From positions 69,401 to 133,400 of the forward strand of contig JAQWFD010000001.1 in NCBI GenBank assembly GCA_028704555.1: a stretch of 64,000 nucleotides of DNA, written 5' to 3'. The DNA is from Desulfobacterales bacterium (GTDB lineage Bacteria > Desulfobacterota > Desulfobacteria > Desulfobacterales > JAQWFD01). Below, in pieces: positions 36,094-63,049 of the stretch (positions within the stretch are counted from its first letter, which is position 1; every line of letters begins with the position of its first letter). The position numbers were made by a program, and so were the translations under genes. A model generated the notes under the pieces. It searched no databases and was not told the DNA's origin. It worked only from the letters and a program-made list of their open reading frames with translations.

Positions 36094-37287
36094 TCATTCA
36101 AGGATTTCACTTACAACACCAGCACCGACGGTCCGGCCACCTTCTCTGATTGCAAACCGAAGTTCTTTTTCCATTGCAATCGGAGTAATGAGCTCAGCCA
36201 AAATCGATACATTATCACCAGGCATTACCATCTCAACCCCATCCGGCAACGTGATCACTCCGGTTACATCCGTTGTACGGAAATAAAACTGCGGACGGTA
36301 TCCATTGAAAAACGGCGTGTGGCGTCCGCCCTCTTCTTTACTCAAAATATATGTCTCTGCCTTGAACCTCGTGTGAGGTGTAATCGATCCGGGCTTGGCT
36401 ACTACCTGCCCGCGCTCAACCTCTTCTCTCTTGGTCCCCCGAAGCAGGACACCAATGTTGTCTCCGGCCTGTCCCTCATCCAGAAGTTTGCGGAACATCT
36501 CCACTCCGGTACATACCGTCTTGACAGTCGGCCTGATTCCAACGATCTCCACATCTTCTCCGACCTTGATAATCCCCCGATCAACACGGCCGGTGACCAC
36601 TGTCCCTCGTCCGGATATGCTGAACACATCTTCAATCGGCATCAAAAAAGGTTTGTCAACATCGCGTTCCGGCGCAGGAATATAGTTGTCGATTGCATCC
36701 ATCAACTGGAATATGCATTTGGCCGCATCGCTGTCGGCATCATCGCTCTCCAGTGCCTTCAATGCGCTGCCGCGAATAATCGGAGTATCATCTCCCGGAA
36801 AATCATACTTGTCCAGAAGCTCTCGCATCTCAAGCTCAACCAGCTCAATCAACTCTTCATCATCGACCATATCGCATTTGTTCAAAAACACAACGATCCG
36901 GGGAACACCGACCTGGCGAGCCAGCAATATATGCTCCCGGGTCTGCGGCATCGGTCCGTCATCAGCGCCAACCACCAGTATGGCTCCGTCCATCTGAGCG
37001 GCTCCGGTGATCATATTCTTGATATAGTCAGCATGGCCCGGACAGTCGACGTGCGCATAGTGCCGTTTTTCAGTTTCATATTCAACATGCGCGGTCGCAA
37101 TCGTTATGCCCCGGGCTCTTTCTTCAGGCGCCTTATCAATCTGATCAAACGAAATAAAATCCGCCATCCCCTTCAAGCCCATATGCTTTGTAATTGCTGC
37201 CGTCAAGGTCGTCTTCCCATGATCGATATGACCGATGGTACCCACATTCACATGAGGCTTTTTCCGCTCATACTTTGCCTTCGCCAT
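36094..37287 (-). CDS. tuf: elongation factor Tu (copy 2, tufB-like position)
   Basis: ORF track 36094..37308 trimmed to the ATG matching copy 1 ([12 protein letters not shown]). Protein identical to copy 1. Preceded by four tRNAs. Confidence 0.97.
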
Positions 37288-37400
37288 ATTCAATTCCTCC
37301 CCTGTCATTATTATACAAGCTATTATTGTCTTTTTAAAAATCAGTGTCTTCCCTGGTCATCGCTCCGCAGGAAAGACAATCCAGAAAACAAAGATTAAAC

Positions 37401-38926: not shown

Positions 38927-40828
38927 TTGCATAAAAAATTCATGATATTCATAGCTACAGCCTTTATTCTGATATATCTTTGCAGCGCATGCGCAAAACA
39001 ATCCCACCGACCGACGGTAAATGGCAATGCCCAGGCACAGCCAAAAAATCAGATCGACGAGACAATTTCAGACGAGACAGTTTCAATTGATTCGACCACG
39101 GCATTCTGCCTTGCGACAAACGCAGCAGCACCAGATAAGGCTCAACGCATCCCTGCCGATTCAGATTCATCAGACCAGACAGTATCTGCAGGTACTCAGC
39201 CCTCATTCAATGATCAGGAAAAGGACTCAGACGGCTATGCAACCGAGGAAAACCCCTTCGAAAAATTCATTCAGCCCAAATTGGATGAGTCACTGGACTA
39301 CTGCAAAGAATCACAACATTACTGGCAAAAAGGTGATTTTGACAATGCGATAGAGTCACTGGATCAAGCCTATTCCTTAATTTTAGACGCCGATACAAAT
39401 GATGATCCAAAGCTGTTTCAACAAAAAGAAGATCTTCGTTTCATGATTTCAAAACGCATTCTTGAAATCTATGCGTCACGAAATATCGTCGTAACCGGAA
39501 ATCACAATGCCATCCCACTGGTTTTAAATAAACACATACAAAATGAAATCGATTGTTTTACCCATCAGGAGAAAAACTTTTTCATTCAGTCCTATAAACG
39601 TGCCGGTCAATTCCGCCCCTCGGTTCTCGCAGCGCTCAAAGAAGCCGGATTACCGGAAGAATTGTCATGGCTGCCACTGATTGAAAGTGGATTTAAAGTA
39701 ACCGCCCTGTCCAAAGCCAGAGCACTTGGACTATGGCAGTTTATCCCCTCAACCGGTTACAAATTCGGACTGACGCGGGATATGTTCACTGATGAACGGC
39801 TGGATCCGGTCAAATCAACCCATGCGGCAATTGCATATTTAAAAGAGCTGCATAACATGTTCGGGGACTGGACGACGGTGCTGGCCGCCTATAACTGCGG
39901 CGAAGGTCGGGTACTCAAATTGATACGGAATCAAAATATCAACTATCTGGATAATTTCTGGGATCTTTATGAAAAACTGCCGCAGGAAACGGCCAGATAT
40001 GTTCCAAGATTTCTTGCAACCCTCCATATCATCAAAAACCTCGAAAAGTATGGATTCAGCGATATAGAGTCGGACGATCCCTTAGAATATGATACCATAA
40101 CCGTCGCAAAGCAGATGCGCTTGAAAGATATTGCAGCTCATATTCAAGAACCCGAAAAACTGCTCGTTCAACTAAATCCGGAACTTCGATATAAAATTCT
40201 TCCACAAGAAACTTACACGTTAAAAGTCCCCAAAGGCAAAGCGGAAATCATACTTTCCGAGATTGACAATATTTCCATATCATCTCCCCCTGAAAAAGAG
40301 TTTGTGCACCATCGTGTTAAACACGGCGAGACGCTGTCTTCAATTGCCGGTCGATATCATACCAGTGTCAGAAAAATCATGCGTGTCAACCATCTTAAAA
40401 AAAGCAACCATATTGTTGCAGGGAAAAAACTTAAAATTCCTTTCAAAGGCACGATGGTATCTGAGCTGAACGCACCTTCCGATCGGAACAAGGCAATAAA
40501 ATCTTCCATTCCTTCGACTCATGTGGTGAAAAGAGGGGATTCTCTCTGGATTATTGCCAAACGATATGCTACTACAACACAAAAAATTCAACACCTCAAT
40601 AAATTGAACACAACCCGGCTTTATATCGGTCAGGTTTTAAATATTCCCGGATCAGCTGATCAAAAAACGGCCGATAAAGGCAACCTTAAAACTTATTGTG
40701 TTAAAAACGGTGACAACCCTTTTGGCATATGCCAATACAATAACATGTCACTGGAACGTTTTTTGCGTATTAACAATCTGACTTCAAACAGTAAGATTTA
40801 TCCGGGACAGACCGTTTTTGTTGATTAA
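38927..40828 (+). CDS. membrane-bound lytic murein transglycosylase D-like protein (SLT domain plus 3 LysM)
   Basis: 633-aa ORF. Hydrophobic signal-like N-terminus, SLT catalytic block ELSWLPLIESGFK...ALGLWQFIPSTG, three C-terminal LysM repeats (HRVKHGETLSSIAGRY.., HVVKRGDSLWIIAKRY.., YCVKNGDNPFGICQYN..). Start is TTG 38927 or ATG 38942. Confidence 0.88.
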   Translation: MHKKFMIFIATAFILIYLCSACAKQSHRPTVNGNAQAQPKNQIDETISDETVSIDSTTAFCLATNAAAPDKAQRIPADSDSSDQTVSAGTQPSFNDQEKDSDGYATEENPFEKFIQPKLDESLDYCKESQHYWQKGDFDNAIESLDQAYSLILDADTNDDPKLFQQKEDLRFMISKRILEIYASRNIVVTGNHNAIPLVLNKHIQNEIDCFTHQEKNFFIQSYKRAGQFRPSVLAALKEAGLPEELSWLPLIESGFKVTALSKARALGLWQFIPSTGYKFGLTRDMFTDERLDPVKSTHAAIAYLKELHNMFGDWTTVLAAYNCGEGRVLKLIRNQNINYLDNFWDLYEKLPQETARYVPRFLATLHIIKNLEKYGFSDIESDDPLEYDTITVAKQMRLKDIAAHIQEPEKLLVQLNPELRYKILPQETYTLKVPKGKAEIILSEIDNISISSPPEKEFVHHRVKHGETLSSIAGRYHTSVRKIMRVNHLKKSNHIVAGKKLKIPFKGTMVSELNAPSDRNKAIKSSIPSTHVVKRGDSLWIIAKRYATTTQKIQHLNKLNTTRLYIGQVLNIPGSADQKTADKGNLKTYCVKNGDNPFGICQYNNMSLERFLRINNLTSNSKIYPGQTVFVD

Positions 40829-40843
40829 AAGCTGACAATATCC

Positions 40844-40919
40844 GCCCCCGTAGCTCAGTGGATAGAGCAATGGATTCCTAATCCATGTGCCGCAGGTCCG
40901 ATTCCTGCCGGGGGCACCA
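40844..40919 (+). tRNA. tRNA-Arg (anticodon CCT), atypical T-loop
   Basis: GCCCCCG-TA-GCTC-AGTGGATA-GAGC-A-ATGGA-TTCCTAA-TCCAT-GTGCC-GCAGG-TCCGATT-CCTGC-CGGGGGC-A-CCA. The T-loop reads TCCGATT, with C where the near-invariant U55 is expected. Confidence 0.8.
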
Positions 40920-40929
40920 CAATTTTAAA

Positions 40930-41112
40930 ATGGTGCCATCAAGGGCTTAAAAGGGAATTCCGTGTAAACCGGAAGCGGTCCCGCCGCTGTAATCGGGGAC
41001 GAACGCTGCATCAGGCCACTGCATGGTCTCAACCTTGCGGGAAGGCGCAGTCAGTAGATTGATCCGATAGCCAGAAGACCTGCCATAGACAACCGCTACT
41101 TGTGGAAATGGT
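40930..41112 (+). promoter_or_regulatory. cobalamin (AdoCbl) riboswitch
   Basis: Conserved core elements are visible: AAAAGGGAA, GTGTAAACCGGAAGCGGTCCCGCCGCTGTAA, GCCACTG, GGGAAGGC, and a B12-box-like AGCCAGAAGACCTGCC. Lies directly upstream of cobT and is followed by a terminator hairpin. Confidence 0.85.
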
Positions 41113-41147
41113 AAATCCCCAAGCGTATATACGCTTGGGGATTTTTT
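41113..41147 (+). terminator. riboswitch expression-platform terminator
   Basis: AAATCCCCAAGCG-TATATA-CGCTTGGGGATTTTTTT. Perfect 13-bp stem plus a T7 run, 43 nt before the cobT ATG. Confidence 0.85.
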
Positions 41148-41189
41148 TATATTTAAGGTCTGTATTTCCAAAAAAAAGGAGGACATACG

Positions 41190-42272
41190 ATGGACAGATC
41201 CATTATTGAATTGGAAGACATCATTATCGGGATCAAACCGGTAGACGGGCAATGGATTGAAAAAGCCAGGACGCGAACATCCCGACTGGTGATGCCCACA
41301 CGTGCACTGGGACGGCTTCACGATATATCCGAACGGATGTGCGGAATCTCCCGGACCCTTCAGCCGTCGGTCCGGAACAAAGCCGTCCTGATCATGGCGG
41401 CAGACCACGGAATCGTTGATGAAGGCGTCAGCGCCTATCCGCAGGAAGTCACAGGGGAAATGATAAAAACCTTCCTGAAAGACGGGGCAGGCATCAACGT
41501 CATTTCATCGTATGTCGGGGTTCAGGTCCAGGTGGTTGATGTCGGCATCATCCCTGAACTTGATCCGAATTCCCTTTCCGGTGGAGAAAAGCTCCATATT
41601 GAAAAAATCAGAAAAGGAACCTCGAATTTTGCCAAGGGCCCGGCCATGAACCTCCATGACGCGCGGCAGTCTCTGATGACCGGCTTTACACATGCCTCCC
41701 GTCTTTTTAAAAACGGGACAGACATTATCGGCACCGGAGATATGGGAATCGGAAACACAACCCCGTCTGCCGCAATCGGATCCGTCATTACCGGAAAGCG
41801 TCTGGATGAAATGGTGGGACCGGGTACCGGGCTCGATGACAAGGGAATCATCAAAAAAAAGAACGCTATTTTACGCGGGATTGAGCTGAATCAGCCGGAC
41901 CCTGAAAACGGACTCGATATTCTGGCCAAAATCGGCGGTTTTGAAATCGGGGCCATTGCCGGGACCATCCTTGCAGCAGCCTTCCATCAAAAACCTGTGG
42001 TAGTAGACGGCCTGATTTCAACCGCCGGCGCCCTTATCGCCCACTGCCTCTGTCCGGCTTCCGCAGGCTATATGTTCGCCGGGCACTGTTCGGAAGAACC
42101 CGGTCACAAGGCAATGCTGGCCTGGCTGGGGCTTGATCCCATTCTGGATCTGGGCATGCGGCTGGGCGAAGGCAGCGGTGGCGCCCTTTCCATGACAATC
42201 ATCGAAGCGGCGATCCGGGTCCTTTGTGACATGATGACATTTGACGAAGCGAGCGTAAGCAATAAGGAATAG
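41190..42272 (+). CDS. cobT: nicotinate-nucleotide--dimethylbenzimidazole phosphoribosyltransferase
   Basis: 360-aa ORF with RBS AAGGAGGA. Contains the CobT blocks VLIMAADHGIVDEGVSAYPQEVT and GTGDMGIGNTTPSAAI. Confidence 0.92.
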   Translation: MDRSIIELEDIIIGIKPVDGQWIEKARTRTSRLVMPTRALGRLHDISERMCGISRTLQPSVRNKAVLIMAADHGIVDEGVSAYPQEVTGEMIKTFLKDGAGINVISSYVGVQVQVVDVGIIPELDPNSLSGGEKLHIEKIRKGTSNFAKGPAMNLHDARQSLMTGFTHASRLFKNGTDIIGTGDMGIGNTTPSAAIGSVITGKRLDEMVGPGTGLDDKGIIKKKNAILRGIELNQPDPENGLDILAKIGGFEIGAIAGTILAAAFHQKPVVVDGLISTAGALIAHCLCPASAGYMFAGHCSEEPGHKAMLAWLGLDPILDLGMRLGEGSGGALSMTIIEAAIRVLCDMMTFDEASVSNKE

Positions 42273-42550
42273 CAATCAGAGGGCGGAGGGCAAAATCACC
42301 TCTCTTTTTTAAATCAATGACAAAGGCCCGGTGAAAAGCAAGCGGCAGACTACCCTTTTCAGCTTTACGGATTCAGCTTTTTTTAATTTCTATTTTATTT
42401 TTGCCCCTGATCTGTTAGAAAAAAAGTTCAATCCCTGTTAAATTTGCAAAAAGGCCCTGTTCGAGCATTTTTTAATGTTTAAATAGATACGATCTGTTGG
42501 ATAGCCAAGGACATAGAGGAGTCAGCGGGCCAGTGCCCTCAACATTGCTA

Positions 42551-43792
42551 ATGAGTCATACACCGAAAAAAGTCGAGCTTCTGGCGCCGGCCGGAAATCT
42601 GGAAAAGCTTGAAATTGCCGTTCATTATGGGGCAGATGCCATTTACCTTTCCGGAAAAGAATTCAGTCTGAGAAGCTATTCAGGCAATTTTTCCCGGGAT
42701 GAAATCAGACAGGCGGTCTCCCTGGCTCACGACCACGACGTCCGGGTTTATGTGGCCTGTAACGTCTACTCAAGAAATAACGAACAAGACGCCATCACTG
42801 ACTATCTTCACGCACTCAGAGACATCAGCCCCGATGCGGTCATCATTTCGGACCCCGGCATCCTGATGGAAGCCTTTAAAATCATGTCCGGCATCCCGGT
42901 TCACCTGAGTACCCAAGCCAATACCACCAATTACCGGACAGCGCTGTTCTGGAAGCAGCTCGGAGTCTCGCGGGTCAACGTTGCCAGAGAACTGACCCTG
43001 AAAGAAATCCGTGAAATCGCTGACCGGAGTGCCATGGAAGTTGAGGCATTTGTCCATGGCGCCATGTGCATTTCCTATTCCGGCCGTTGTCTTCTGAGCA
43101 GTTTCATGGCAAAACGTGACAGCAACCGCGGTCTGTGCTGTCATCCATGCCGCTGGAACTACGCCGTAGTCGAGGCCCTGCGTCCCGGCGAATATATGCC
43201 GATCACAGAGGATGACCGCGGCAGTTATATCTTTAATTCAAAAGATCTTTGCATGATCGACCACATTCCCGAACTGATAGCTGCCGGCATCCATTCGTTC
43301 AAAATTGAAGGCCGCATGAAGGGAATCAATTATCTGGCATCGGTCGTAAAGGTTTACCGCGAAGCCATAGATGCCTGGTACCGCAGTCCATCCCGCTATC
43401 AGGTTCAGCCCTACTGGCGAGAGGAACTTTTAAAAATAAATAACCGGCACTACTGCACCGGATTTTATTTTGGAGACCCGGACCAGATAATGCCCAATTA
43501 TGATCTTGGCCAGTCAGCATCGCCATATATATTCTGCGGCAAAATAACCGGGGCCACCTGTGACGGTCTGACCCCCGTTGAGGTAAGAAACAAGATTTTC
43601 AACGGCGACCCCATAGAAATTCTTGAGACTTCCGGTCCGGCAAAAACTGACAAAATCATTGATATATACGATAACGATGGGCTATCTGTTCCGTTTGCAC
43701 AACCGGGCAGCCGGGTTTTTCTTAAATTGGGGAAAAATTACAGGCCAAGTGATCTGATCCGAAAACTGACACAGCAGACTGAACCGGCATAA
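42551..43792 (+). CDS. peptidase U32 family protein (4Fe-4S / O2-independent hydroxylase-type family)
   Basis: The ORF track starts at TTG 42497. I prefer ATG 42551 (MSHTPKKVELLAPAGNLEKL, the usual U32 N-terminus). Four-Cys motif C-x6-C-x15-C-x3-C in HGAMCISYSGRCLLSSFMAKRDSNRGLCCHPC. Confidence 0.85.
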   Translation: MSHTPKKVELLAPAGNLEKLEIAVHYGADAIYLSGKEFSLRSYSGNFSRDEIRQAVSLAHDHDVRVYVACNVYSRNNEQDAITDYLHALRDISPDAVIISDPGILMEAFKIMSGIPVHLSTQANTTNYRTALFWKQLGVSRVNVARELTLKEIREIADRSAMEVEAFVHGAMCISYSGRCLLSSFMAKRDSNRGLCCHPCRWNYAVVEALRPGEYMPITEDDRGSYIFNSKDLCMIDHIPELIAAGIHSFKIEGRMKGINYLASVVKVYREAIDAWYRSPSRYQVQPYWREELLKINNRHYCTGFYFGDPDQIMPNYDLGQSASPYIFCGKITGATCDGLTPVEVRNKIFNGDPIEILETSGPAKTDKIIDIYDNDGLSVPFAQPGSRVFLKLGKNYRPSDLIRKLTQQTEPA

Positions 43793-43864: not shown

Positions 43865-44380
43865 ATGAAAGGTTATGTGCAGATCTATACGGGTAACGGC
43901 AAGGGGAAAACAACCGCATCTCTGGGACTGTCCATACGGGCGGCCGGCGCCGGACTCAAGGTCTATATCGCTCAGTTCCTCAAAATGGGCGACTACAGCG
44001 AAATCAAGGCGCTTCAACGTTTTTCGGACCTTATCACCATAGAGCAGTTCGGCTTGGGCGAATTTATCAAAGGCAAACCCTCACCGAAAGAAATCAAATC
44101 CGCCCTTGCCGGCCTTGAAAAAATCAAATCGATCATTGCCGCCGACGAGCATGATGTGGTGATCATGGAAGAAGGAAATGTGGCGGTCATGTGCGGTTTG
44201 TTTCCCGTCGAAGAGCTGCTGAACATCATTGACGCAAAGCCGGAACATATGGAGCTTGTCATCACCGGGCGGGGCGCGGATCCAAAGGTAATCGAAAAAG
44301 CAGACCTGGTAACCGAAATGAAAGAGATCAAGCACTATTACCAGAAAGGGGTCCAGGCCAGAGTTGGAATCGAAAAATAA
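43865..44380 (+). CDS. cobO: cob(I)yrinic acid a,c-diamide adenosyltransferase
   Basis: 171-aa ORF, MKGYVQIYTGNGKGKTTASLGLSIRAAGAG (CobA/CobO/BtuR P-loop). Confidence 0.92.
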   Translation: MKGYVQIYTGNGKGKTTASLGLSIRAAGAGLKVYIAQFLKMGDYSEIKALQRFSDLITIEQFGLGEFIKGKPSPKEIKSALAGLEKIKSIIAADEHDVVIMEEGNVAVMCGLFPVEELLNIIDAKPEHMELVITGRGADPKVIEKADLVTEMKEIKHYYQKGVQARVGIEK

Positions 44381-45896
44381 TCCATCTGCCAAAGCGCCTT
44401 GCATCGCCGTATTCGGAACCGGTTCCGATGTGGGCAAAAGCATTGTCGTAACCGCTTTGTGCCGGCTTTTTGTCAACAATGGCATGCGCGTTGCGCCGTT
44501 CAAGGCCCAGAACATGTCCAATAATTCCGGGGTAACGCCTGAAGGACTTGAGATGGGCCGGGCCCAGATCGTCCAGGCCGAAGCGGCCCGGATTGCCCCT
44601 CACGTGGACATGAATCCAATTCTGCTCAAGCCCACCAGCGATGTGGGCGCACAGGTGATCCTGATGGGCCAGGCCCTCAACAACCGTACCGCCAGAGAGT
44701 ATCACCAATACAAGACGCATCTGATTAATGCTGCCTGCGATGCGCTGGATCGGCTTCGCCGCCAGTATGACATGGTCATTCTGGAAGGTGCCGGCTCGTG
44801 TGCCGAAGTCAACCTGATGTCCCATGACATCGTAAATTTTAAAATGGCTGAATATGCCGAAGCGCCGGTAATTCTGGTGGGAGACATCCACCGGGGCGGA
44901 ATTTTCGCCCAGCTCATCGGCACCCTGGCGTGCCTTCCGGAGCATTGCCGGGATCGGATAAAAGGCTTTATTATTAACCGGTTCCGGGGTGATCTCACCC
45001 TGTTTGAAGACGGCACCCGCTGGATCGAACAGACATCGAAAAAGCCTGTTCTGGGAGTTTTGCCCTGGTACCGGCATATCACGATCGAGGCCGAGGATTC
45101 GGTTATTATTGAAAATCCTGAAAAAGTATCCCGCGCAGCGATCATCCGGCCGGCAATCGCCATTGTCCGCATCCCACATATATCTAATTTCACCGATTTT
45201 GATCCGCTTTTCAGCATCCCGGCTCTTCACGTTCATTTCATCGAGAAGGTACAGGAGCTTTCACTGTTTGACGCAGTCATCCTGCCCGGGTCAAAAAATA
45301 CATGTCATGATCTCCGGTGGCTGCATCAAACCGGATGGGCATGTGAACTGAACGCTTATGCTGAACAAGGGGGCCATATTCTGGGAATATGCGGCGGATA
45401 TCAAATGATGGGCAGCAACGTAATTGACCCCGAAGGACTCGAAGGCTCTCCGGGGACAACCCGGGGGCTCGCGCTGCTTCCAATTGAAACCATCCTGAAA
45501 GCACCCAAGACCACTACCCTCTCCCGATTTTCATGGGACGGGTTTGAGGGCACCGGATATGAAATTCACATGGGACAAACCCAGCGATTTGACGGCCGCG
45601 TCATGTTTCAGGTGAAGGAGCGGAACGGAGCTTCCGTCTTGATGGAAGACGGCTGTATTTCTCCGAATGAAAACATCATGGGCACCTACATGCACGGGCT
45701 GTTTGATTCTCCGGATATTACCCGGCAATGGCTGACCCGAATCGGTCTGTCAGATGTTCCGGTATCGGCCGCTTATGGCCCTGCAGCCAGGGATACCCAG
45801 TACGATCTTCTTGCCGCACATTTTAAAACGCACATTGACACCCGGCGCATCATGAATGAACTGACTCACGGCTATCACAACGGAGAAGCGCAGTGA
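44364..45896 (+). CDS. cobQ: cobyric acid synthase
   Basis: 510-aa ORF. N-terminal VFGTGSDVGKS ATPase block and a C-terminal GATase-like domain (ICGGYQMMG). Start (TTG, overlapping the cobO end) is uncertain. Confidence 0.92.
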   Translation: MESKNNPSAKAPCIAVFGTGSDVGKSIVVTALCRLFVNNGMRVAPFKAQNMSNNSGVTPEGLEMGRAQIVQAEAARIAPHVDMNPILLKPTSDVGAQVILMGQALNNRTAREYHQYKTHLINAACDALDRLRRQYDMVILEGAGSCAEVNLMSHDIVNFKMAEYAEAPVILVGDIHRGGIFAQLIGTLACLPEHCRDRIKGFIINRFRGDLTLFEDGTRWIEQTSKKPVLGVLPWYRHITIEAEDSVIIENPEKVSRAAIIRPAIAIVRIPHISNFTDFDPLFSIPALHVHFIEKVQELSLFDAVILPGSKNTCHDLRWLHQTGWACELNAYAEQGGHILGICGGYQMMGSNVIDPEGLEGSPGTTRGLALLPIETILKAPKTTTLSRFSWDGFEGTGYEIHMGQTQRFDGRVMFQVKERNGASVLMEDGCISPNENIMGTYMHGLFDSPDITRQWLTRIGLSDVPVSAAYGPAARDTQYDLLAAHFKTHIDTRRIMNELTHGYHNGEAQ

Positions 45897-46417
45897 AAGA
45901 CATTATTTTTGTAATCGGCGGATGTCGCAGCGGCAAAAGCCGCCATGCACTGGAACTGGCCGAACAGATTTCGGCAGATCAGCGTTGCTATGTGGCCACA
46001 TGCGTCCCTCATGATGATGAAATGAAACAGCGTGTCACCCGCCATCAGCAGGAAAGAAGCAACAGCTGGATTACTGTGGAGGAACCGGTCAGACTGCCCG
46101 AGATCATCGGCACCCATGGCCATCCGGGGAATCTTCTGCTAATCGACTGCCTGACCCTGTGGATCAGCAACCTGATGATGGAAACCCGCGACCTGGATGA
46201 GATCATGATCCGCATCGACCGCCTCACCAAAGCACTGGATCAGGCCCGGTGCCCGGTCATTCTGGTGTCCAATGAAGTCGGCGCCGGAATAGTGCCTGAA
46301 AACCCGCTGGCACGACTGTTCCGGGATGCCGCAGGCTTTACCAACCAGAAAGTGGCCGCCTGCGCCGACAGGGTCATCTGGACCGTTGCCGGAATTCCGG
46401 TGAAGATAAAGGGATAG
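45893..46417 (+). CDS. cobU: adenosylcobinamide kinase / adenosylcobinamide-phosphate guanylyltransferase
   Basis: 174-aa ORF, IIFVIGGCRSGKSRHALELAE P-loop. GTG start overlapping the cobQ stop. Confidence 0.9.
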   Translation: MKDIIFVIGGCRSGKSRHALELAEQISADQRCYVATCVPHDDEMKQRVTRHQQERSNSWITVEEPVRLPEIIGTHGHPGNLLLIDCLTLWISNLMMETRDLDEIMIRIDRLTKALDQARCPVILVSNEVGAGIVPENPLARLFRDAAGFTNQKVAACADRVIWTVAGIPVKIKG

Positions 46418-46495: not shown

Positions 46496-47221
46496 ATGAA
46501 CTCACTGATTTCCGCCATACAGTTTATCACGATACTGCCCATCGGCAAGCAGGTGCCGTTCAATCCCCGGGCCATGATTCCGTTTTTCCCGGTGGCAGGG
46601 ATCATCCTTGGAATTGCCGTTACCGGTTTTGACCATATTGCATCTGCCTTCTGGCCCGCACCGGTCACTTCGCTCCTCGATGTCATTTTCCTGATTGTGC
46701 TGACCGGTGCATTTCACATGGATGGTCTGGGAGATACCGCAGACGGGCTGTATAATTATCGAAACCGGGAAAAGGCACTGGCGATCATGAAAGACAGCCG
46801 CATCGGAGTGATGGGGCTGGTCGCCATTGTCTGCGCGCTGCTGACCAAATGGGCCGGCATTTACAGTATTCAGGAGCACCGGTGGCTTCTGCTCCTGATC
46901 ATACCGTCCTATGCCAGGGCCAGCATGATTTTCGGCATCCGGTTCCTGCCCTACGGCAGGCCCGAAGGCACCGGCCACGATTTTTTCAACACCCCCCTGC
47001 CGTTTTCCGCATTTTGGGCCTTGCTGATACCCGTATGCCTGTCATTGTTTCTGGGCTGGCAAGCACTGTGGCTCAATTTCCTGTTCATAGCCATCACGGG
47101 GCTGACCCTTCTCTATTACAAAAACCGTATGGACTGTATTACCGGCGACATGCTGGGGGCAATGTCGGAAATCACCGAATCCTTGCTTTTTCTACTGATT
47201 TCAGCGGGAGGAATATCATGA
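46496..47221 (+). CDS. cobS: adenosylcobinamide-GDP ribazoletransferase (cobalamin synthase)
   Basis: 241-aa polytopic ORF, AIQFITILPIG...GAFHMDGLGDTADG. Confidence 0.92.
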   Translation: MNSLISAIQFITILPIGKQVPFNPRAMIPFFPVAGIILGIAVTGFDHIASAFWPAPVTSLLDVIFLIVLTGAFHMDGLGDTADGLYNYRNREKALAIMKDSRIGVMGLVAIVCALLTKWAGIYSIQEHRWLLLLIIPSYARASMIFGIRFLPYGRPEGTGHDFFNTPLPFSAFWALLIPVCLSLFLGWQALWLNFLFIAITGLTLLYYKNRMDCITGDMLGAMSEITESLLFLLISAGGIS

Positions 47222-48333
47222 TTAACGGCCACGGCGGAAATATTTACGCACTGGCAGCCTCGCTGGGCTGCGAGCCGTCAGACATTATCGATATGAGCAG
47301 CAATGTCAACCCCATAGGCCCTCCGCCCGGGCTGATTGACTGTCTCAAAGCGCATCTGGACACCATCACCGCCCTTCCCGAAGTTGACGCTGAAGGTGCG
47401 GTCGCCGCATTTGCGATCCGTCACGGAATCGATCCGGACCGGGTGCTTGCCGGAAATGGTACCACCCAGTTCATCTATACACTGCCCCGGGCGCTTTCTG
47501 CCCGAAAGGCGCTGATTCTCGGACCGACCTATGCGGACTATGCCGATGCCTGCCACCTGAATCAGGTGCCCTGCGACTTTATCCTTGCCGACGATAGTCG
47601 GGACCTGATTCACGATGCTGACGCGATCTCATCTTCGATCGGGGACGCTGATCTGGTATTTATCTGCAATCCCAACAACCCAACCGGCACGCTGATCCCC
47701 GCACCTGACCTTGAACAGCTTTGCCGGTCACACCCGGACACGCGCTTTGTCATTGATGAATCCTACCTGCCCTTTGTAAAAAAGCCTGAAATGCACTCAA
47801 TGATTCATTCACCCTTTTCGAATGCGATCATTCTCAACTCCATGTCAAAAATATTCCGACTGCCGGGACTGAGAATCGGTTTTTTGATTGCCCGGCCTGA
47901 GATCATCAGCACGTTAGCCCCCTATGCACTCCCATGGAGCGCCAACAGCCTGGCTCAGGACGCCGTCAGATATCTGATGGCACAAACCGGATCCATCGAT
48001 GCGTTTATCTGCAACACCCGGCAGCTGATCGAGGCCGAAAAGCAGATGTTTCTGGACACGTTTCAAAACGTATCCGGGATCCATTTTTTTCCAAGCGTCA
48101 CCTCGTTTCTGCTGGCAAGGCTTTCCGGCAGTTTTACCGCAGAAGATGTCTGCACGGCGCTGGCCCGCCACAAACTGCTGATCCGAAACTGCTCCAATTT
48201 CAGGGGTCTGACAAACCGTTACATCCGGATTTCCATGAAAACACCGGAAATTAACCGCATGGCAGCGGAAAGGCTCATGGCCTTACTAAAGAGCAAGCAG
48301 CACACAGAAGGAAACAAAGCTGCTCACCAATAA
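47218..48333 (+). CDS. cobD: threonine-phosphate decarboxylase (CobD, Salmonella nomenclature)
   Basis: The ORF track starts at 46849, inside cobS. I use ATG 47218 (MINGHGGNIYALA..., the typical HGGN start), overlapping the cobS stop by 4 nt. Class I/II aminotransferase fold (SMSKIFRLPGLRIGF). Confidence 0.88.
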   Translation: MINGHGGNIYALAASLGCEPSDIIDMSSNVNPIGPPPGLIDCLKAHLDTITALPEVDAEGAVAAFAIRHGIDPDRVLAGNGTTQFIYTLPRALSARKALILGPTYADYADACHLNQVPCDFILADDSRDLIHDADAISSSIGDADLVFICNPNNPTGTLIPAPDLEQLCRSHPDTRFVIDESYLPFVKKPEMHSMIHSPFSNAIILNSMSKIFRLPGLRIGFLIARPEIISTLAPYALPWSANSLAQDAVRYLMAQTGSIDAFICNTRQLIEAEKQMFLDTFQNVSGIHFFPSVTSFLLARLSGSFTAEDVCTALARHKLLIRNCSNFRGLTNRYIRISMKTPEINRMAAERLMALLKSKQHTEGNKAAHQ

Positions 48334-48369: not shown

Positions 48370-49332
48370 ATGGATTATTATCATTTTTTGTATGTACTTC
48401 CGGCTGTGTTTGTTCTTGATCTTCTTCTGGGGGACCCTCCCGAATGGCCCCATCCGGTCAGATGGATGGGAAGAGCGATCAGTGCGGTTGAGCCGGATTT
48501 CAGGGGAATTCCGATCAAGCCCACCATCTCAGGAGGACTTTTTGCCCTGTTTCTGATTCTCTGCACCTGGGTGGCTACGTATCTCATCCTCAAGGTTGCG
48601 TATCTTATTCATCCGGTACTGAAAATAATGATCGAAATGGTGCTGATCTATTTTTGCATTTCAATCCGATCTTTAGAAAAGGCAGCCATGGTCGTGTCAG
48701 CCGCTCTCAGCCAGAACAAGCTGGACGATGCCAGGCAGAAAGTATCTCTGATTGTCGGCCGGGATGTCAAATCGCTTGATGAAAACGGTGTGGCAAGGGC
48801 TTCTGTTGAAACCGTTGCTGAAAATCTTGTCGACGGGATCATCTCTCCCCTCTTTTTTGCCGCCATTGGCGGGGCGCCGCTGGCAATGGCCTACAAGATG
48901 GTCAACACCCTGGATTCCATGGTCGGCTATAAAAATGAAACCTACCGGGAATTTGGAACCGTATCGGCCAGAATTGACGACATTCTGAACTATCTCCCGG
49001 CACGCCTTTCCGTTCCGCTAATTGCACTGGCCGCCCAGCTGATCAATCGCAAGGGCGCGGTCTCGTTTAAAACTGCATGGAAAGAAGGCGCAAACCATTC
49101 CAGTCCCAATTCCGGATATTCGGAGGCGGCATTTGCCGGCGCACTGGGCGTTAAACTCGGTGGCCCCAATTTTTATCATGGAATACTGGTTACCAAGCCG
49201 TTCATCGGAGAGGATTTTGGAGAAACCGGAACCGCCCATATCAAAAGGGCATGCGATCTGATGCTTCTGTCTTCCATATTCTGGGGAGCAGCCTTGTGGC
49301 TGATCATTGCCGGTGTTATATACTTTGCATAA
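48370..49332 (+). CDS. cbiB: adenosylcobinamide-phosphate synthase
   Basis: 320-aa membrane ORF, LLGDPPEWPHPVRWMGRAI... and the MVNTLDSMVGYKNETY block. Confidence 0.9.
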   Translation: MDYYHFLYVLPAVFVLDLLLGDPPEWPHPVRWMGRAISAVEPDFRGIPIKPTISGGLFALFLILCTWVATYLILKVAYLIHPVLKIMIEMVLIYFCISIRSLEKAAMVVSAALSQNKLDDARQKVSLIVGRDVKSLDENGVARASVETVAENLVDGIISPLFFAAIGGAPLAMAYKMVNTLDSMVGYKNETYREFGTVSARIDDILNYLPARLSVPLIALAAQLINRKGAVSFKTAWKEGANHSSPNSGYSEAAFAGALGVKLGGPNFYHGILVTKPFIGEDFGETGTAHIKRACDLMLLSSIFWGAALWLIIAGVIYFA

Positions 49333-49505: not shown

Positions 49506-50351
49506 TTGAAAACCAGGTTGCCCTATCCGGCACTGTCCGAATCGTACAGGAATCTGTTCCCGTTCAGGCTGGCCACCACGTCATTTATTTATCCGGACAC
49601 GTATGCCAATAATGTCAGAATGCTGGCCCCTTACGTGGATGAAATCGAATTGCTCATGTTTGAAAGCGCCGCGGCCAGTCTGCCATCGAAAAAAGACATC
49701 TCTGAGCTTTGCCTTCTTGCTGACGATTTTGATATCACCTTCAATGTCCACCTGCCCTATGATGTTCCACTGGATGATACTGATCCGACAAAGCGCGCTC
49801 ATGCCGCTGATGCCATCCGCCACGTCATCGAACTGACCGCCCCGCTGTGGCCGAGCACCCTGACCCTTCATCTTCCATACAATGAGGCCGGCTGTGAATC
49901 CGGTCATATTAAGGCATGGCAGGAAAACATCTGTGAAGGGATGAATCATATACTGACATCAGGCATTGACAGCAGAAAGATTTCAATCGAAACCCTGGCG
50001 TATCCGTTTAAATGGGCAGAACCGGTCGTAAAAGAGCTGAACCTGTCCGTATGCCTTGACATCGGGCATCTGATGCGCTTCGGCTACAATGTAAATGACG
50101 CATTCAACCGGTATGCGGATATCACCACCATCATTCATCTCCACGGAATTGAAAACCGGCAGGATCACGTGGCGTTAAATAACCTGTCTGAAAACGAACT
50201 AAATTTAATATGGAATATATTAAACCGGTACAAGGGGATCATGTCCGTGGAGGTGTTTTCATTCAAACATCTGGAAACATCGTTGAAACTCCTGAAAAAA
50301 GAACTGGCCCTGCCTCACGTCACACATACACAAGACCTGCAAGAACCTTGA
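49506..50351 (+). CDS. xylose-isomerase-like TIM-barrel (AP endonuclease 2 superfamily) protein, possible cobamide-remodeling CbiR
   Basis: 281-aa ORF with a TTG start. His/Asp/Glu-rich beta-strand ends (FNVHLPYD, TLHLPYNE, IIHLHGIE, SVEVF) resemble sugar-phosphate isomerase/epimerase-type TIM barrels. Last gene of the cobamide cluster. The CbiR call rests on context and family memory only. Confidence 0.55.
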   Translation: MKTRLPYPALSESYRNLFPFRLATTSFIYPDTYANNVRMLAPYVDEIELLMFESAAASLPSKKDISELCLLADDFDITFNVHLPYDVPLDDTDPTKRAHAADAIRHVIELTAPLWPSTLTLHLPYNEAGCESGHIKAWQENICEGMNHILTSGIDSRKISIETLAYPFKWAEPVVKELNLSVCLDIGHLMRFGYNVNDAFNRYADITTIIHLHGIENRQDHVALNNLSENELNLIWNILNRYKGIMSVEVFSFKHLETSLKLLKKELALPHVTHTQDLQEP

Positions 50352-56768: not shown

Positions 56769-56802
56769 TTGTGGGGTAGGTGTGGGGTATAGTGTGGGGT
56801 AG
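56769..56802 (+). repeat. three tandem GTGTGGGGTA-type repeats upstream of int
   Basis: tTGTGGGGTAG-GTGTGGGGTAT-AGTGTGGGGTAG, 26-59 nt upstream of the integrase ATG. The TGGGGTA core recurs (both orientations) in the block at 61019-61223. Confidence 0.75.
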
Positions 56803-56827
56803 AAAATCCAACCAAAGGAGGAACCCT

Positions 56828-57991
56828 ATGCCAGCAGCCAAACGATTTAAGACAAAATATCCTGGAGTCTTCTATACTATCGGCAAATCTGCCAGCGGAA
56901 AACCAGAACGGATTTACAATATTCGGTATCGAAAGCATGGAAAAATGATCGAGGAGAAGGCAGGACGGCAGCTTCAAGATGCGATGACACCCGCAGTGGC
57001 GGCGAGAATCCGAGCAAATAGAATTGAAGGCGACCTATCAAATCGTGAAAAACGAGAAGCTGAAGACGCAAAGAAAGCGGCTGAAGCTGGGAAATGGACC
57101 TTGGACAAATTGGCGGCTGAATATTTCAACGGTAGGCCGGACGGCAAATCTAAAGTTACCGACCTCAACAGGTTCGAAAAATATCTAAAAGCAAAATTCG
57201 GCAATCAAGAGCCTTCTGAAATCATCCCTTTAGAGGTTGACAGGCTTCGAATCAGGTTACTCAAAACCAAGTCCCCTCAAACCGTCAAGCACGTTCTGAA
57301 TTTACTGACCTGGATAGCCAACTTTGGATTCAAAAAAAACCTATGTGCCGGAATACCCTTTCATATCGAAAAACCAACAGTTGACAATCAAAAAACAGAA
57401 AATCTAACACAGGAGGAACTTTCAAAGCTTTTGCAAGTCCTTGATGAGCATGATGATATTCAAATCGCAAACCTTATGAAAATGGCTCTGTTTACCGGAA
57501 TGCGGCGCGGCGAGCTATTCAAACTAAAATGGAAGGATGTTGACCTTAACAGAGGCTTCATAAAAATCGTTGAACCCAAAGGCGGGAAAAGCCAAACTGT
57601 GCCGTTAAGTGAAGATGCTAAGCGGATTTTAGAAAAGCATCCCCGAACGGAAAGCGCGTTTGTGTTTCCGAACAAACACGGGGAACAGCGGGTTAGCGTC
57701 AGTCACTCGGTCAATAAGATCAAAAAAGCGGCCGGACTTCCTAAGGATTTCCGACCCCTTCACGGCTTGCGGCACACTTTCGCTTCTATTCTGGCGGGTT
57801 CTGGCGAAGTTGACTTGTATAAAATCCAGCGGTTACTCACACATAAAGATCCGCGAATGACACAAAGGTATGCACACCTCAGAGATGAGTCCCTCAAGCA
57901 AGCGTCTAATGTGGCCGGGGATATCATCAGCCAGGCAGCAGCTAAAAAGGATGTTGAGCAGGTCGTTAACATAGAGGAACATCGAAAATAA
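56828..57991 (+). CDS. int: tyrosine-type site-specific integrase
   Basis: The ORF track starts at GTG 56780. I prefer ATG 56828, with AAAGGAGG 6 nt upstream. Catalytic signature: R in FTGMRRGEL, HGLRHTFAS, and LLTHKDPRMTQRYAH (nucleophile Tyr). Confidence 0.92.
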   Translation: MPAAKRFKTKYPGVFYTIGKSASGKPERIYNIRYRKHGKMIEEKAGRQLQDAMTPAVAARIRANRIEGDLSNREKREAEDAKKAAEAGKWTLDKLAAEYFNGRPDGKSKVTDLNRFEKYLKAKFGNQEPSEIIPLEVDRLRIRLLKTKSPQTVKHVLNLLTWIANFGFKKNLCAGIPFHIEKPTVDNQKTENLTQEELSKLLQVLDEHDDIQIANLMKMALFTGMRRGELFKLKWKDVDLNRGFIKIVEPKGGKSQTVPLSEDAKRILEKHPRTESAFVFPNKHGEQRVSVSHSVNKIKKAAGLPKDFRPLHGLRHTFASILAGSGEVDLYKIQRLLTHKDPRMTQRYAHLRDESLKQASNVAGDIISQAAAKKDVEQVVNIEEHRK

Positions 57992-58100
57992 CACTTTTCA
58001 GGGGATAGGGTCCGGCTGATCACCGGAACCGACAAGACCGGATAACCTGGCCGGTTTTCCCCGGGGTCTAATACCAGGAGTGCCACAGGAGGCATAAAAA

Positions 58101-58853
58101 ATGGCTACACGTTCTATCTCAAATAATTACCCCCTTCTAAACATAGAGGCACTGAGTGCTTGCGCCGAAAGGTGGGCGCGATATTACCAGTTTATTCAAC
58201 GAATAACCATCCAGAGGACCTATTGCGTTTCCGAAGATATTCAATATGTAATAATTTTTGAAACACCGGAAATTGACGATAGCGACAGAGATTTGGCACC
58301 CTATTTTCATGATTTTCAAATGCAAGTGGCAGATCCCTTTGATGAATCATGCTTTCTCAGGGACTTGAAAACAGTTTACTCCGACGGCCAGGAGCATGCC
58401 GTTGCGGATGAGTGGTATTTTGACCGCATAGATATTGGAGAACAATGGAGTGCCGAGGTCGATGAGAATACCAAAATTATTCTTTATGAAAAATTAGATC
58501 CGCTTGATCTGCTGTTGAAAAGTATCCGTCCACAGGCTGATGAAATTTACCTCGGAATTAAAGAGCACGCGGGTATAGGCCTGAAGGCAGGAGGCGAACC
58601 GCAAATTAAGGAGAAGAGAAAGGAAGCCGCACTCGATATTTACAGAAAGGACAAGTCGCGGTTCCCGGATGTGCGGGAGAGCTTTCTATCAGAATTGGAC
58701 CTTTACGACTTTGGAGACAAGCCACATGAGGAGTTCATCGGCACGCTGCTAATGAAAATAGTGACGACAAGAGGCTTTTCGGAAGCAAAAAACAAACGCG
58801 ATCTTTTCAAGAGATCAAAGAAATGGAAGCCAGGTTCCGTGCCAAAAAAGTGA
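58101..58853 (+). CDS. hypothetical protein (no recognisable family)
   Basis: 250-aa ORF with a strong RBS (CAGGAGG, 7 nt spacer). Acidic N-terminal two-thirds and a Lys-rich C-terminal tail. I recognise no motif. Confidence 0.6.
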   Translation: MATRSISNNYPLLNIEALSACAERWARYYQFIQRITIQRTYCVSEDIQYVIIFETPEIDDSDRDLAPYFHDFQMQVADPFDESCFLRDLKTVYSDGQEHAVADEWYFDRIDIGEQWSAEVDENTKIILYEKLDPLDLLLKSIRPQADEIYLGIKEHAGIGLKAGGEPQIKEKRKEAALDIYRKDKSRFPDVRESFLSELDLYDFGDKPHEEFIGTLLMKIVTTRGFSEAKNKRDLFKRSKKWKPGSVPKK

Positions 58854-58938
58854 ACCTGTTAAATATTCATTAATTCAAGCATGTTATATATTTAGCAAGT
58901 TCACCTCGTGAGCTGTTAAAATTTCTTTACCTATGAGA

Positions 58939-58980
58939 CCCTGTAGTCATTCAGTTGATTATAGGGTTTTTTGTTTTTTT
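58939..58980 (+). terminator. rho-independent terminator after the int-orphan module
   Basis: CCCTGTA-(14 nt)-TATAGGG followed by TTTTTTGTTTTTTT. Confidence 0.55.
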
Positions 58981-59004
58981 ACCACTTAACACGGAGTTTT
59001 AACG

Positions 59005-59202
59005 ATGGATGAGAAATTTGCCAAGTATTTACACGAAAGGGAAGTGTCAGAAATCACAGGCCGGGCGCTTCCAACTCTGAGAAACGACAGACATAATCGG
59101 CGAGGCATTCCCTATTGCAAAATTGGGAGGTCTGTTCGCTACCTACATGACGACGTGATTGAATTCATGGAGAGCAGAAAAATCCAAACCGAAAGCCTGT
59201 AA
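59005..59202 (+). CDS. AlpA/excisionase-family helix-turn-helix DNA-binding protein
   Basis: 65-aa ORF. YLHEREVSEITGRALPTLRNDRHNRRGIPYCKIGRSVRYLHDDVIEFMESR matches the MerR-superfamily excisionase/AlpA pattern (HTH, then K/R-I/V-G-R-x-V/I-R-Y). Stop lies 2 nt before the primase ATG. Confidence 0.8.
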   Translation: MDEKFAKYLHEREVSEITGRALPTLRNDRHNRRGIPYCKIGRSVRYLHDDVIEFMESRKIQTESL

Positions 59203-59204
59203 AT

Positions 59205-61238: not shown

Positions 61239-61612
61239 AAAATTCGGTCAATTTTTTATCCCGTATGGGGCTATACGTTTCAAATGGCGCAGGGGGCAAA
61301 GGGGACAAAATCAAAATATGGGGCCTGAACCGACTTTCAGCGGATCAGCGGGAAAATGTCGTTGAATATGCGAAGGAACACAAGACAGAGATCATAGAAA
61401 CCTTGAACAGGAAGAACCCCCGTTGTCTGGGCATTGTCTGCGACTACGCTCAATACAAAGAAATTGATGAAATGCCGTTTTGCCTATGGTGTAACCGGGT
61501 TGACAAGCTGGGGCTTAACCTGGCGGAATGCCCTGAAGGCTATTGGGAGAAGGATGAATTGGGATTCCCTAAAAACGCGTTAATGGAAGCCCATAGCCGA
61601 GGGCACCCATAG
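61235..61612 (+). CDS. hypothetical Cys-rich protein
   Basis: 125-aa ORF. TTG start with GAGGTG 5 nt upstream, overlapping the primase stop (ATTTGA). C-terminal half has C-x4-C...C-x2-C...C spacing. Confidence 0.5.
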   Translation: MKNSVNFLSRMGLYVSNGAGGKGDKIKIWGLNRLSADQRENVVEYAKEHKTEIIETLNRKNPRCLGIVCDYAQYKEIDEMPFCLWCNRVDKLGLNLAECPEGYWEKDELGFPKNALMEAHSRGHP

Positions 61613-61702
61613 AATGGCCAATAACCACCGAATCAGACAATTGACAAGCGGTCATACTGAAGGCCGAGTACAATTTATTTAATTTCAACAGGAGATACCG
61701 CA

Positions 61703-62467
61703 ATGAGTAACGTTATTCCATTCAACTACAATTCAAAAGAGGTAAGAGTAATCAAGGATGAATCGGGAAATCCATGGTGGGTTGCAAAGGATGTTTGTGA
61801 CGTCCTTGATATCAAAAACGCGACACAGGCAATAAGCATTCTTGACGATGATGAACGGTCTATGCAAAACATAGGTCGTCAAGGTGAGGCAAATATTATC
61901 AATGAATCAGGGCTTTATGCTTTAATCATCCGCAGCAACAAACCCCAATCAAAACCATTTCGCAAATGGGTAACATCTGAAGTTCTTACATCTATTCGCA
62001 AAACAGGAAGCTATAAAGCGCCAAATCAGAAACCAGCCACTCTCCTACCGATTGACCGGGAATTCCGGGCTGCCGTCAGAATGGCGAAAGCTGCTGGGCT
62101 AAAGGGCAATCAGGCAGTACTCTCAGCAAACCGTCTCACCAGAGAAATGACAGGTTCGGCACCGCTACAATTACTGGAGATCACCCATCTTGAATCAGCT
62201 ACCAAAGAAGCCCACCTGACCCCGTCCGACATCGGCAAACAGCTTGGCCTATCCGGACGAAAAGTTAACAAGACACTTGCTGCGAATGGGCTCCAGACAG
62301 CCTACAGGGATCATAAAGACAGGCTGAGATGGAAACCCACACCGAAGGGCGCGGCATATTCTGTCGCCAAGGACACAGGGAAAAAGCACAGCGACGGAAC
62401 GCCGGTTGTCCAACTGTTCTGGCTCGATTCGGTGCTTGACTCGCTGAAAATGTTGGCTGCTGCATAA
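61703..62467 (+). CDS. BRO-N domain protein (prophage antirepressor-like)
   Basis: 254-aa ORF with RBS AGGAGA. N-terminus VIPFNYNSKEVRVIKDESGNPWWVAKDVCDVLDIKN...ESGLYALIIRSNKPQSKPFRKWVTSEVLTSIRKTG is the classic BRO-N pattern. Confidence 0.85.
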   Translation: MSNVIPFNYNSKEVRVIKDESGNPWWVAKDVCDVLDIKNATQAISILDDDERSMQNIGRQGEANIINESGLYALIIRSNKPQSKPFRKWVTSEVLTSIRKTGSYKAPNQKPATLLPIDREFRAAVRMAKAAGLKGNQAVLSANRLTREMTGSAPLQLLEITHLESATKEAHLTPSDIGKQLGLSGRKVNKTLAANGLQTAYRDHKDRLRWKPTPKGAAYSVAKDTGKKHSDGTPVVQLFWLDSVLDSLKMLAAA

Positions 62468-62522
62468 TATCACACTTAACGAACCAGAACTTTACGCCAC
62501 AATCGAAAGGCGGTTACGACAG

Positions 62523-62888
62523 ATGAGCACAGATGATCTTCGAAAACGATACCGGCAATACCATAAAGAGCGTGACCGCCTTTGGAGAGAATACGAACGG
62601 GCTATGGATGCCTTCTGCGCTGAAATGCGAAAACTGCCTGTTCTTGTACGGCTGAAACACTACCACCAGAAACCAGCACCCCCACGTCTCCCCTTCCCCG
62701 ACGAACTGCGGGGCCTTACCTGAGGGGCTAAGACGAGGCGCGGGACGCCTTGTAAAAGAATAGATCTTTTCAGCAACGGACGATGTAAATTTCATGGTGG
62801 CATGAGTACAGGTCCGACATCGGCAGAGGGAAAGCGAAAGGCCGCCTTAAATGGGCAGAAACCGAAACGAAATAAGCGGAGTCCATGA
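62523..62888 (+). CDS. HGGxSTG-type zinc-knuckle protein interrupted by an in-frame TGA (candidate Sec codon, or pseudogene)
   Basis: The 66-aa ORF ends ...ELRGLT-TGA. The same frame continues GAKTRRGTPCKRIDLFSNGRCKFHGGMSTGPTSAEGKRKAALNGQKPKRNKRSP-TGA (62886-62888). The downstream part has no start codon of its own near its beginning. The TGA occupies the position of the first Cys in the CGAxTRxGxxC...NGRCxxHGGxSTGP pattern. Confidence 0.55.
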
Positions 62889-63049
62889 AGGGTTAACAAT
62901 AGTTAACATTTCAGGAGGCCGTACCCGAGGGTCGAGCGGTTATCTGAGGGCATGGTATAGCCGAATGATCTGAGCTACATCTGATGGTTTACGGACAATA
63001 AAAGGGTTACTTTTCTTTGATGATTTCGATTAAAAAAAAGGAGTTGATT

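Follow-up and report, generated by a model that had tools for sequence, protein, structure and literature searches.

A 64,000-nucleotide stretch of a Desulfobacterales genome (assembly GCA_028704555.1, contig JAQWFD010000001.1, positions 69,401 to 133,400), hereafter the window, carries a gene for a U32-family protein inside a cobamide operon. We propose, with a probability of about 60%, that this protein is an O2-independent, prephenate-dependent hydroxylase of the PepU32#1 subfamily, which most probably forms 5-hydroxyuridine at position 34 (ho5U34) of tRNA, and that its gene is a passenger in the operon. The original prediction for this stretch, made from the sequence, had placed the gene between cobT and cobO on the same strand and downstream of a cobalamin riboswitch, which was borne out, and had read the adjacency to cobT as pointing to hydroxylation of a cobamide lower ligand. 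This second part did not hold up when related loci were compared, and the prediction's own caveat, that the linkage could be fortuitous, turned out to be the better reading.

The U32 open reading frame (ORF) extends from a TTG codon (42497-43792, + strand). Alignment with homologs placed the start at an ATG at 42551, giving a protein of 413 residues; a GTG at 42533 (419 residues) is a possible alternative and is used in a 99%-identical homolog. The protein matched the Pfam Peptidase_U32 profile (PF01136) with an E-value of 4e-96 and 321 bits, against a gathering cutoff of 22.4, over profile positions 2-232 of 233, which places it in the U32 family, and it matched Peptidase_U32_C with an E-value of 2e-12. 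The motif C-x6-C-x15-C-x3-C lies exactly at the nucleotides predicted (43067-43150), where the cysteines had been numbered from the TTG (C191, C198, C214 and C218); counted from the ATG, they are C173, C180, C196 and C200. All four are invariant among 18 aligned homologs, and conservation does not extend to a fifth cysteine, C197. The prediction had also given this spacing as that of UbiU/UbiV, shared by RlhA and TrhP. C-x6-C-x15-C-x3/4-C is indeed a recurrent motif of most U32 subfamilies, but UbiU has C-x6-C-x16-C-x38-C and UbiV C-xn-C-x12-C-x3-C (PMC6747719). An AlphaFold model of the window protein showed a TIM barrel (predicted template modelling score (pTM) 0.79), with low confidence around the cysteine motif. 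The best Foldseek match of the model was 5D88, the U32 protein Mk0906 (E 4e-8), and its U32_C domain superposed on that of a Geobacillus U32 protein (PDB entry 4HE5, C-terminal domain) with a target-normalised TM-score of 0.86 and a root-mean-square deviation of 1.7 Å. A sequence search of the PDB with the window protein gave no match.

The closest characterised homolog was E. coli TrhP, at 37% identity over 397 columns and 242 bits, compared with 29% and 151 bits for RlhA and 30% and 146 bits for UbiU. NCBIfam likewise ranked TrhP first among its models. TrhP residues E162, C170 and C177, which are conserved motif residues examined by Sakai et al. (PMC6599085), align with E165, C173 and C180 of the window protein. 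In a neighbour-joining tree, a clade comprising sequences from Clostridia, Desulfuromonadales, Syntrophobacteraceae and Desulfobacterales was sister to E. coli TrhP and lay away from UbiU, UbiV and RlhA. With the UbiU equivalog model the protein scored 203 bits, where 440 are required, and its cysteine spacing differs from that of UbiU. Pfam found no DUF3656, the domain that marks RlhA, in the protein, and no second U32 gene that could encode a partner was found near the window gene. The earlier view of a U32 Fe-S protein belonging among the O2-independent hydroxylases is supported.

The U32 family has been divided into 12 subfamilies by Kimura et al. (2017) and Sakai et al. (2019), whose tables list one PepU32#1 protein and one or two RlhA1 proteins in Desulfobacterium, Desulfatibacillum, Desulfococcus and Desulfobacter. 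Desulfobacula additionally has one PepU32#6 protein and an RlhA2 domain, and yegQ-type TrhP is found in none of these tabled Desulfobacterales genomes. Since the window protein is not of the RlhA kind, it should be the PepU32#1 member, and it clusters with a Finegoldia magna protein (B0S112) that is PepU32#1 by the same elimination. The assignment is therefore an indirect one, by elimination and clustering, and the single-copy status in Desulfobacterales is taken from the Sakai supplementary table.

Gene neighbourhoods of the U32 gene

About 170 loci were surveyed for the genes around U32, scored by tblastn with the cob proteins of the window and by clustering of the neighbouring ORFs. A profile scan of genome contigs with the 18-sequence alignment gave at least 600 matches, mostly from Firmicutes and including five Desulfobacterales loci, and served as the outgroup. 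A metagenome scan was likewise saturated, and the counts given here hold among the matches listed. The set from outside the order comprised 138 loci among L008-L163, mostly Clostridia, at 43-51% identity to the window protein. None of the 138 had cobamide genes within about 10 kb of U32. By contrast with the window, 114 of the 138 had a gene for a PF01596 O-methyltransferase of about 215 residues, of the TrmR type, immediately upstream on the same strand. This methyltransferase is part of a ruvX-mltG-methyltransferase-U32 arrangement (for example, L013 9342-11212), which resembles the yrrK-L-M-N-O locus of B. subtilis.

The B. subtilis methyltransferase YrrM (TrmR) acts on ho5U made by U32 proteins (PMC6599085). 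In the table of Sakai et al., trmR or cmoA/cmoB occur without TrhO, TrhP, TrhP1 or TrhP2 in C. tetani, Alkaliphilus, Desulfitobacterium, Geobacter and D. autotrophicum, and three of these, Alkaliphilus, Geobacter and D. autotrophicum, have PepU32#1 in the U32 list of the same authors. Genomes that have trmR or cmoAB and none of the known hydroxylases, taken together with the methyltransferase linkage, make PepU32#1 a candidate for the missing ho5U34 hydroxylase, and the simplest reading is that it would serve as such in these lineages. We regard the survey as strong comparative evidence for this role of PepU32#1 in Clostridia and Desulfobacterota.

On this reading, the single-copy U32 enzyme would bind a [4Fe-4S] cluster through C173, C180, C196 and C200. 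By analogy to TrhP, RlhA and UbiU/V, it would be expected to hydroxylate an aromatic ring without O2 and with prephenate. The most likely substrate would be uridine 34 of tRNAs, converted to ho5U, the precursor of 5-methoxyuridine (mo5U) and 5-carboxymethoxyuridine (cmo5U). The C-terminal beta-barrel, which TrhP and TrhP1 also have, may bind the tRNA.

Within the Desulfobacterales, the loci allow the history of the gene's surroundings to be traced. In six relatives (L004, L005, L007, L094, L095 and L098), tRNA-Arg(CCT) directly precedes U32. A tRNA gene also precedes U32 at the equivalent position in L174, and L165 has tRNA-Arg upstream of rmlCD-U32. The tRNA is itself preceded by a lytic transglycosylase of one ORF cluster (c36) in L004, L007, L094, L095 and L098 and by an SLT-LysM protein in L174, with the tuf, nusG and rplK region further upstream in several of these relatives. 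Downstream, a DUF8180 gene and the gene for PBP1A recur, with or without an intervening cobO. The window shares this backbone, but has the riboswitch and cobT between tRNA-Arg(CCT) and U32, and adjacency to cobT was found only there and in the 87%-identical L169. The adjacency from which a lower-ligand reaction had been predicted is therefore a recent local insertion. The variable segment is the one beside the tRNA gene, which is empty or holds either rmlACD or the riboswitch and cobT. U32 is therefore at its ancestral position, with B12 genes coming and going around it, and the lytic transglycosylase is part of the ancestral backbone rather than of the cob gene set.

These arrangements suggest that the ancestral order in Desulfobacterales would have been lytic transglycosylase, tRNA-Arg(CCT), (rmlACD), U32, (cobO) and PBP1A. 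In the lineage of the window, the riboswitch and cobT would then have been inserted between the tRNA gene and U32. The genes from cobQ to cbiR would have accreted beside cobO, so that the operon may have been assembled around an older U32-cobO neighbourhood.

Nothing in the proteins themselves pointed to a paralog specialised for cobamides. Copies linked to cob genes and unlinked copies interleave in the tree, and their mean identities to the trmR-linked Clostridial proteins are 45.4% and 46.2%, respectively, compared with 46.0% for Desulfuromonadales. Among positions at least 90% conserved in both groups, none differed between linked and unlinked copies.

Alternative readings and the U32-cobO linkage

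Several observations weigh against a tRNA-modifying passenger, and they are given here with the alternatives that they favour. The first alternative is that the protein is an O2-independent hydroxylase acting on something other than tRNA U34 or a cobamide, such as another RNA position (for example, a pyrimidine of rRNA) or a small aromatic metabolite. The majority of the 12 U32 subfamilies were still uncharacterised in 2024 (PMC10990095), and our literature search found no experiment on the PepU32#1 subfamily, which is formally uncharacterised. Clustering with TrhP or RlhA orthologs had been named in the original prediction as evidence against a cobamide role; the sister position of the PepU32#1 clade to TrhP agrees with this. 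The best NCBIfam model, TrhP (NF011996), scored 350.5 bits and its equivalog cutoff of 534 was not reached. Furthermore, the table of Sakai et al. shows PepU32#1 without cmoA, cmoB or trmR in Desulfatibacillum and Desulfococcus, so that a tRNA role there would stop at ho5U or need an unknown partner. A 62%-identical homolog, P0084 (L173 2966-4807), is fused at its C-terminus to a generic class I S-adenosylmethionine (SAM) methyltransferase (Methyltransf_23/25/11), which does not belong to the TrmR type. The fusion suggests hydroxylation followed by methylation, but the type of methyltransferase does not identify the substrate. When this domain and the methyltransferase encoded upstream of rmlA in L003 were compared with TrmR, CmoA/B and BzaC, they gave only generic class I matches, and they therefore do not discriminate between the hypotheses. 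On the other side, the adjacency of a TrmR-type O-methyltransferase at most loci outside the order points to ho5U and then mo5U, and the architecture, including U32_C, matches those of TrhP and TrhP1. In addition, the genomes with cmoAB or trmR need a hydroxylase, for which PepU32#1 is the sole candidate besides RlhA1. Another substrate is unlikely, if the least unlikely of the alternatives.

The second alternative is a role in cobamide metabolism in Desulfobacterales, with selection keeping the linkage. The enzyme would either hydroxylate, without oxygen, a lower-ligand base or its precursor, or be a redox or functional partner of CobO. If true, it would mean a new anaerobic hydroxylation step and a new class of enzyme in B12 chemistry. 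The sample of the clade comprised about 32 informative loci at 52-87% identity, from the scans and 12 exact-protein look-ups, and is neither exhaustive nor phylogenetically independent. In 11 of the roughly 32, B12 genes adjoin U32, mostly cobO, in at least five architectures. The window and L169 have cobT-U32-cobO; L174 has tRNA-U32-TP_methylase-cobO-cobQ-cobU-cobS-cobD-cbiB-cbiR; L006 has cbiET-cbiG-cobO...cbiR-U32 followed by a pterin-binding protein; and L001, from D. limicola, has cbiA...cbiET-rmlACD-U32-cbiG. In L003, L084 and L097, the order is rml genes-U32-cobO, in L100 it is U32-cobO, and in L085 a btuF-like gene follows U32-cobO. In L090, U32-cobO diverges from btuFCD, a riboswitch, a DUF4465 gene and a TonB-dependent receptor gene. 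This last region (L090 4001-9943) holds btuF-, btuC- and btuD-like genes and a cobalamin riboswitch (82.7 bits), followed by the genes for the DUF4465 protein and the receptor, all on the strand opposite to U32-cobO.

Relative to the block from cobO to cbiR, U32 is first in L174, internal in the window and last in L006, and the stop of U32 and the start of cobO overlap by 4 nt in L084, L090 and L097. The U32-cobO pair is conserved over family-level divergence, repeatedly amid cob, cbi and btu genes. The linkage in Desulfobacterales is therefore more persistent than chance would suggest, and the window gene itself lies downstream of a B12 riboswitch. The pair could be a functional unit, serving the hydroxylation of a benzimidazole, purine or phenolic lower-ligand precursor or an electron exchange with Co(II)/Co(I) adenosylation, which we consider improbable; under this reading, the three overlapping loci would be translationally coupled. 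A corrinoid role of the pair might also exist in addition to a tRNA role.

Against this stands, first, the distribution. The original prediction had held that missing linkage to cobamide genes in other genomes would refute a cobamide role. Outside the order the linkage was indeed missing throughout, whereas inside it was present in the loci just described. Even so, about 21 loci, two thirds of the clade sample, have no B12 gene nearby. They include L170 and L172, which at 67% identity are the closest to the window after L169, and Desulfonema magnum (L164), whose U32 lacks the cob genes that accompany U32 in D. limicola. Second, U32 is a single-copy ortholog at the ancestral tRNA-Arg position, the adjacency to cobT is a recent insertion, and the cob-linked copies show neither a rate shift nor a specific substitution. 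Third, the search of 20 related loci found no B12 riboswitch upstream of U32; the window alone has one, with cobT intervening. Finally, the dTDP-rhamnose genes rmlA, rmlC and rmlD are linked to U32 in 11 loci, as often as the cob genes, which makes the operon a functional mosaic. There the rml genes and U32 make up an apparent operon whose reading frames abut or overlap, as in L001 (7657-11230), L165 (8563-11215), L084 (2884-5186) and the locus of P0117. A common pathway of rmlACD with U32 and cobO was considered, and no rationale for one was found.

No role of a U32 protein in cobamide synthesis was found in our literature search, as the original prediction had also stated. The anaerobic benzimidazole route through BzaAB/BzaF (Hazra et al. 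2015) reportedly yields 5-hydroxybenzimidazole directly, and we know of no hydroxylation step missing from that pathway. These comparisons mostly remove the prospect of a new B12 enzyme, and a cobamide role for the U32 protein appears improbable, more so than another RNA or metabolite substrate.

The historical family name would make the protein a peptidase or collagenase, the latter as reported for PrtC from P. gingivalis and for HP0169 from H. pylori. This can hardly be so, as PrtC and HP0169 belong to subfamilies #4 and #2, the four-cysteine motif is invariant, the TIM-barrel model has no peptidase catalytic signature, the ORF translation has no visible N-terminal signal peptide, and the characterised relatives are hydroxylases.

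We therefore favour the PepU32#1 tRNA hydroxylase. The locus also calls for caution about guilt by association: the cob genes accreted around a housekeeping gene beside a tRNA, and position alone would have been misleading.

The cobamide operon and its proposed transcription

The features around the U32 gene are listed in Table 1. All neighbours from the tRNA to cbiR are on the same strand as U32. U32 and cobO are 72 nt apart, and the cobD ATG overlaps the stop codon of cobS. The operon ends with CbiR and is therefore a unit for salvage and remodelling, not a pathway for making corrin de novo.

Table 1. Features of the U32 locus and its cobamide operon (window coordinates)
Feature	Coordinates	Strand	Evidence
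Lytic transglycosylase, SLT + three LysM; conserved upstream neighbour	38927..40828	+	Pfam
tRNA-Arg(CCT)	40844..40919	+	ARAGORN
Cobalamin riboswitch aptamer	40914..41101	+	Rfam RF00174, 107 bits, E 8e-26
Riboswitch expression platform, 14-bp hairpin (41113-41144) then T-run; intrinsic terminator	41113..41154	+	
cobT, nicotinate-nucleotide:dimethylbenzimidazole phosphoribosyltransferase	41190..42272	+	Pfam DBI_PRT E 2e-122; TIGR03160 401 bits (cutoff 319)
cobT-U32 spacer, AT-rich, 278 nt	42273..42550	+	
U32-family Fe-S protein, PepU32#1, TrhP-like (U32 TIM barrel + U32_C beta-barrel)	42551..43792	+	
Cysteine motif C173-x6-C180-x15-C196-x3-C200, predicted [4Fe-4S] ligands	43067..43150	+	
U32 C-terminal beta-barrel domain, residues 326-404	43526..43762	+	Pfam PF16325; predicted local distance difference test (pLDDT) >90
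cobO, ATP:corrinoid adenosyltransferase	43865..44380	+	Pfam E 4e-59
cobQ/cbiP, cobyric acid synthase	44364..45896	+	
cobU, cobinamide kinase and guanylyltransferase	45893..46417	+	
cobS, cobalamin-5'-phosphate synthase	46496..47221	+	
cobD, threonine-phosphate decarboxylase	47218..48333	+	TIGR01140 276 bits, just below cutoff 290.55
cbiB, adenosylcobinamide-phosphate synthase	48370..49332	+	
CbiR, cobamide-remodelling phosphodiesterase, last in operon	49506..50351	+	NF041277 260 bits (cutoff 105)

The start of the riboswitch aptamer lies no more than about 5-10 nt from the 3' CCA of tRNA-Arg(CCT), which leaves no room for a promoter between the two. Presumably, the riboswitch and cobT share a transcript with the tRNA or have their promoter inside the tRNA gene, and the terminator behind the riboswitch would control cobT. 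The U32 gene of the window may be reached by read-through from the riboswitch or may have a separate promoter in the spacer. The gap of about 225 bp after cobT that had been predicted is correct for the TTG (224 nt), but amounts to 278 nt when measured to the ATG. The hairpin at 42278-42312, already described as weak, has a folding energy of -9 kcal/mol and a z-score of -1.1, with 35 of 200 shuffled sequences folding at least as well. A terminator scan of the window did not call it, and we rejected it as a convincing terminator at that z-score. The spacer is about 90% identical in L169 and possibly carries a promoter or 5' untranslated region of U32. A promoter scan of the spacer found no sigma-70 consensus promoter.

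In L174, whose protein is 63% identical, U32 is the first gene of the cob operon (U32-TP_methylase-cobO...cbiR). No Rfam riboswitch was found in its 555-nt leader (L174 7447-8000), which ends, about 40 nt upstream of the U32 ATG, in a strong GC hairpin and a T9 run that may be an unrecognised attenuator. A relaxed Rfam search of the cobT-U32 spacer of the window and of the tRNA-U32 spacer of L174 gave only sub-threshold matches to unrelated families.

The rest of the window is a core translation and transcription locus, in which two copies of tuf, encoding EF-Tu (21200-22393 and 36094-37308), flank an rpoBC and ribosomal protein region. At the far end, 56780-64000 encodes a phage-type integrase, a Toprim and AAA_25 primase/helicase-like protein, a Bro-N protein and ORFs with no Pfam match, and is probably an integrated mobile element.

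Comparison with characterised U32 proteins

The window gene is a further member of a known, experimentally uncharacterised subfamily, and can be placed beside five kinds of relatives. RlhA, the 23S rRNA C2501 hydroxylase, shares the U32 domain and the cysteine motif. It differs in its lower identity (29%) and in carrying DUF3656, and Desulfobacterales have separate RlhA1 genes. UbiU and UbiV resemble what is expected of the window protein, in having the U32 TIM barrel, conserved cysteines that hold a 4Fe-4S cluster, and prephenate as oxygen donor. UbiU differs in sequence (30% identity) and cysteine spacing, and no U32_C match was found in its alignment; UbiU and UbiV also form a heterodimer and need UbiT. 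UbiT, UbiU and UbiV have been reported from alpha-, beta- and gammaproteobacterial clades (PMC6747719).

B. subtilis TrhP1 and TrhP2 (YrrO and YrrN) are tRNA ho5U hydroxylases encoded beside trmR, and the U32_C fold of the window protein is like that of the Geobacillus protein in 4HE5. TrhP1, of subfamily #5, is without the conserved cysteines and depends on TrhP2, of subfamily #3, whereas the window protein has all four cysteines and no partner encoded nearby. E. coli TrhP (YegQ), a prephenate-dependent tRNA U34 hydroxylase, is alike over almost its full length, sharing the U32 and U32_C architecture, the cysteine motif and the conserved glutamate, and both are single proteins with no paralogous partner encoded nearby. 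TrhP carries an insertion of about 39 residues after the cysteine motif that the window protein lacks, and Kimura and Sakai class the Desulfobacterales proteins as PepU32#1, apart from the yegQ type. The PepU32#1 proteins of Clostridia and Geobacter, such as Finegoldia magna B0S112, are 43-51% identical to the window protein and have the same length, domains and motif, with a single copy per genome. Their genes lie in the ruvX-mltG-trmR-U32 locus, whereas the window gene lies between cobamide genes, with no methyltransferase gene beside it.

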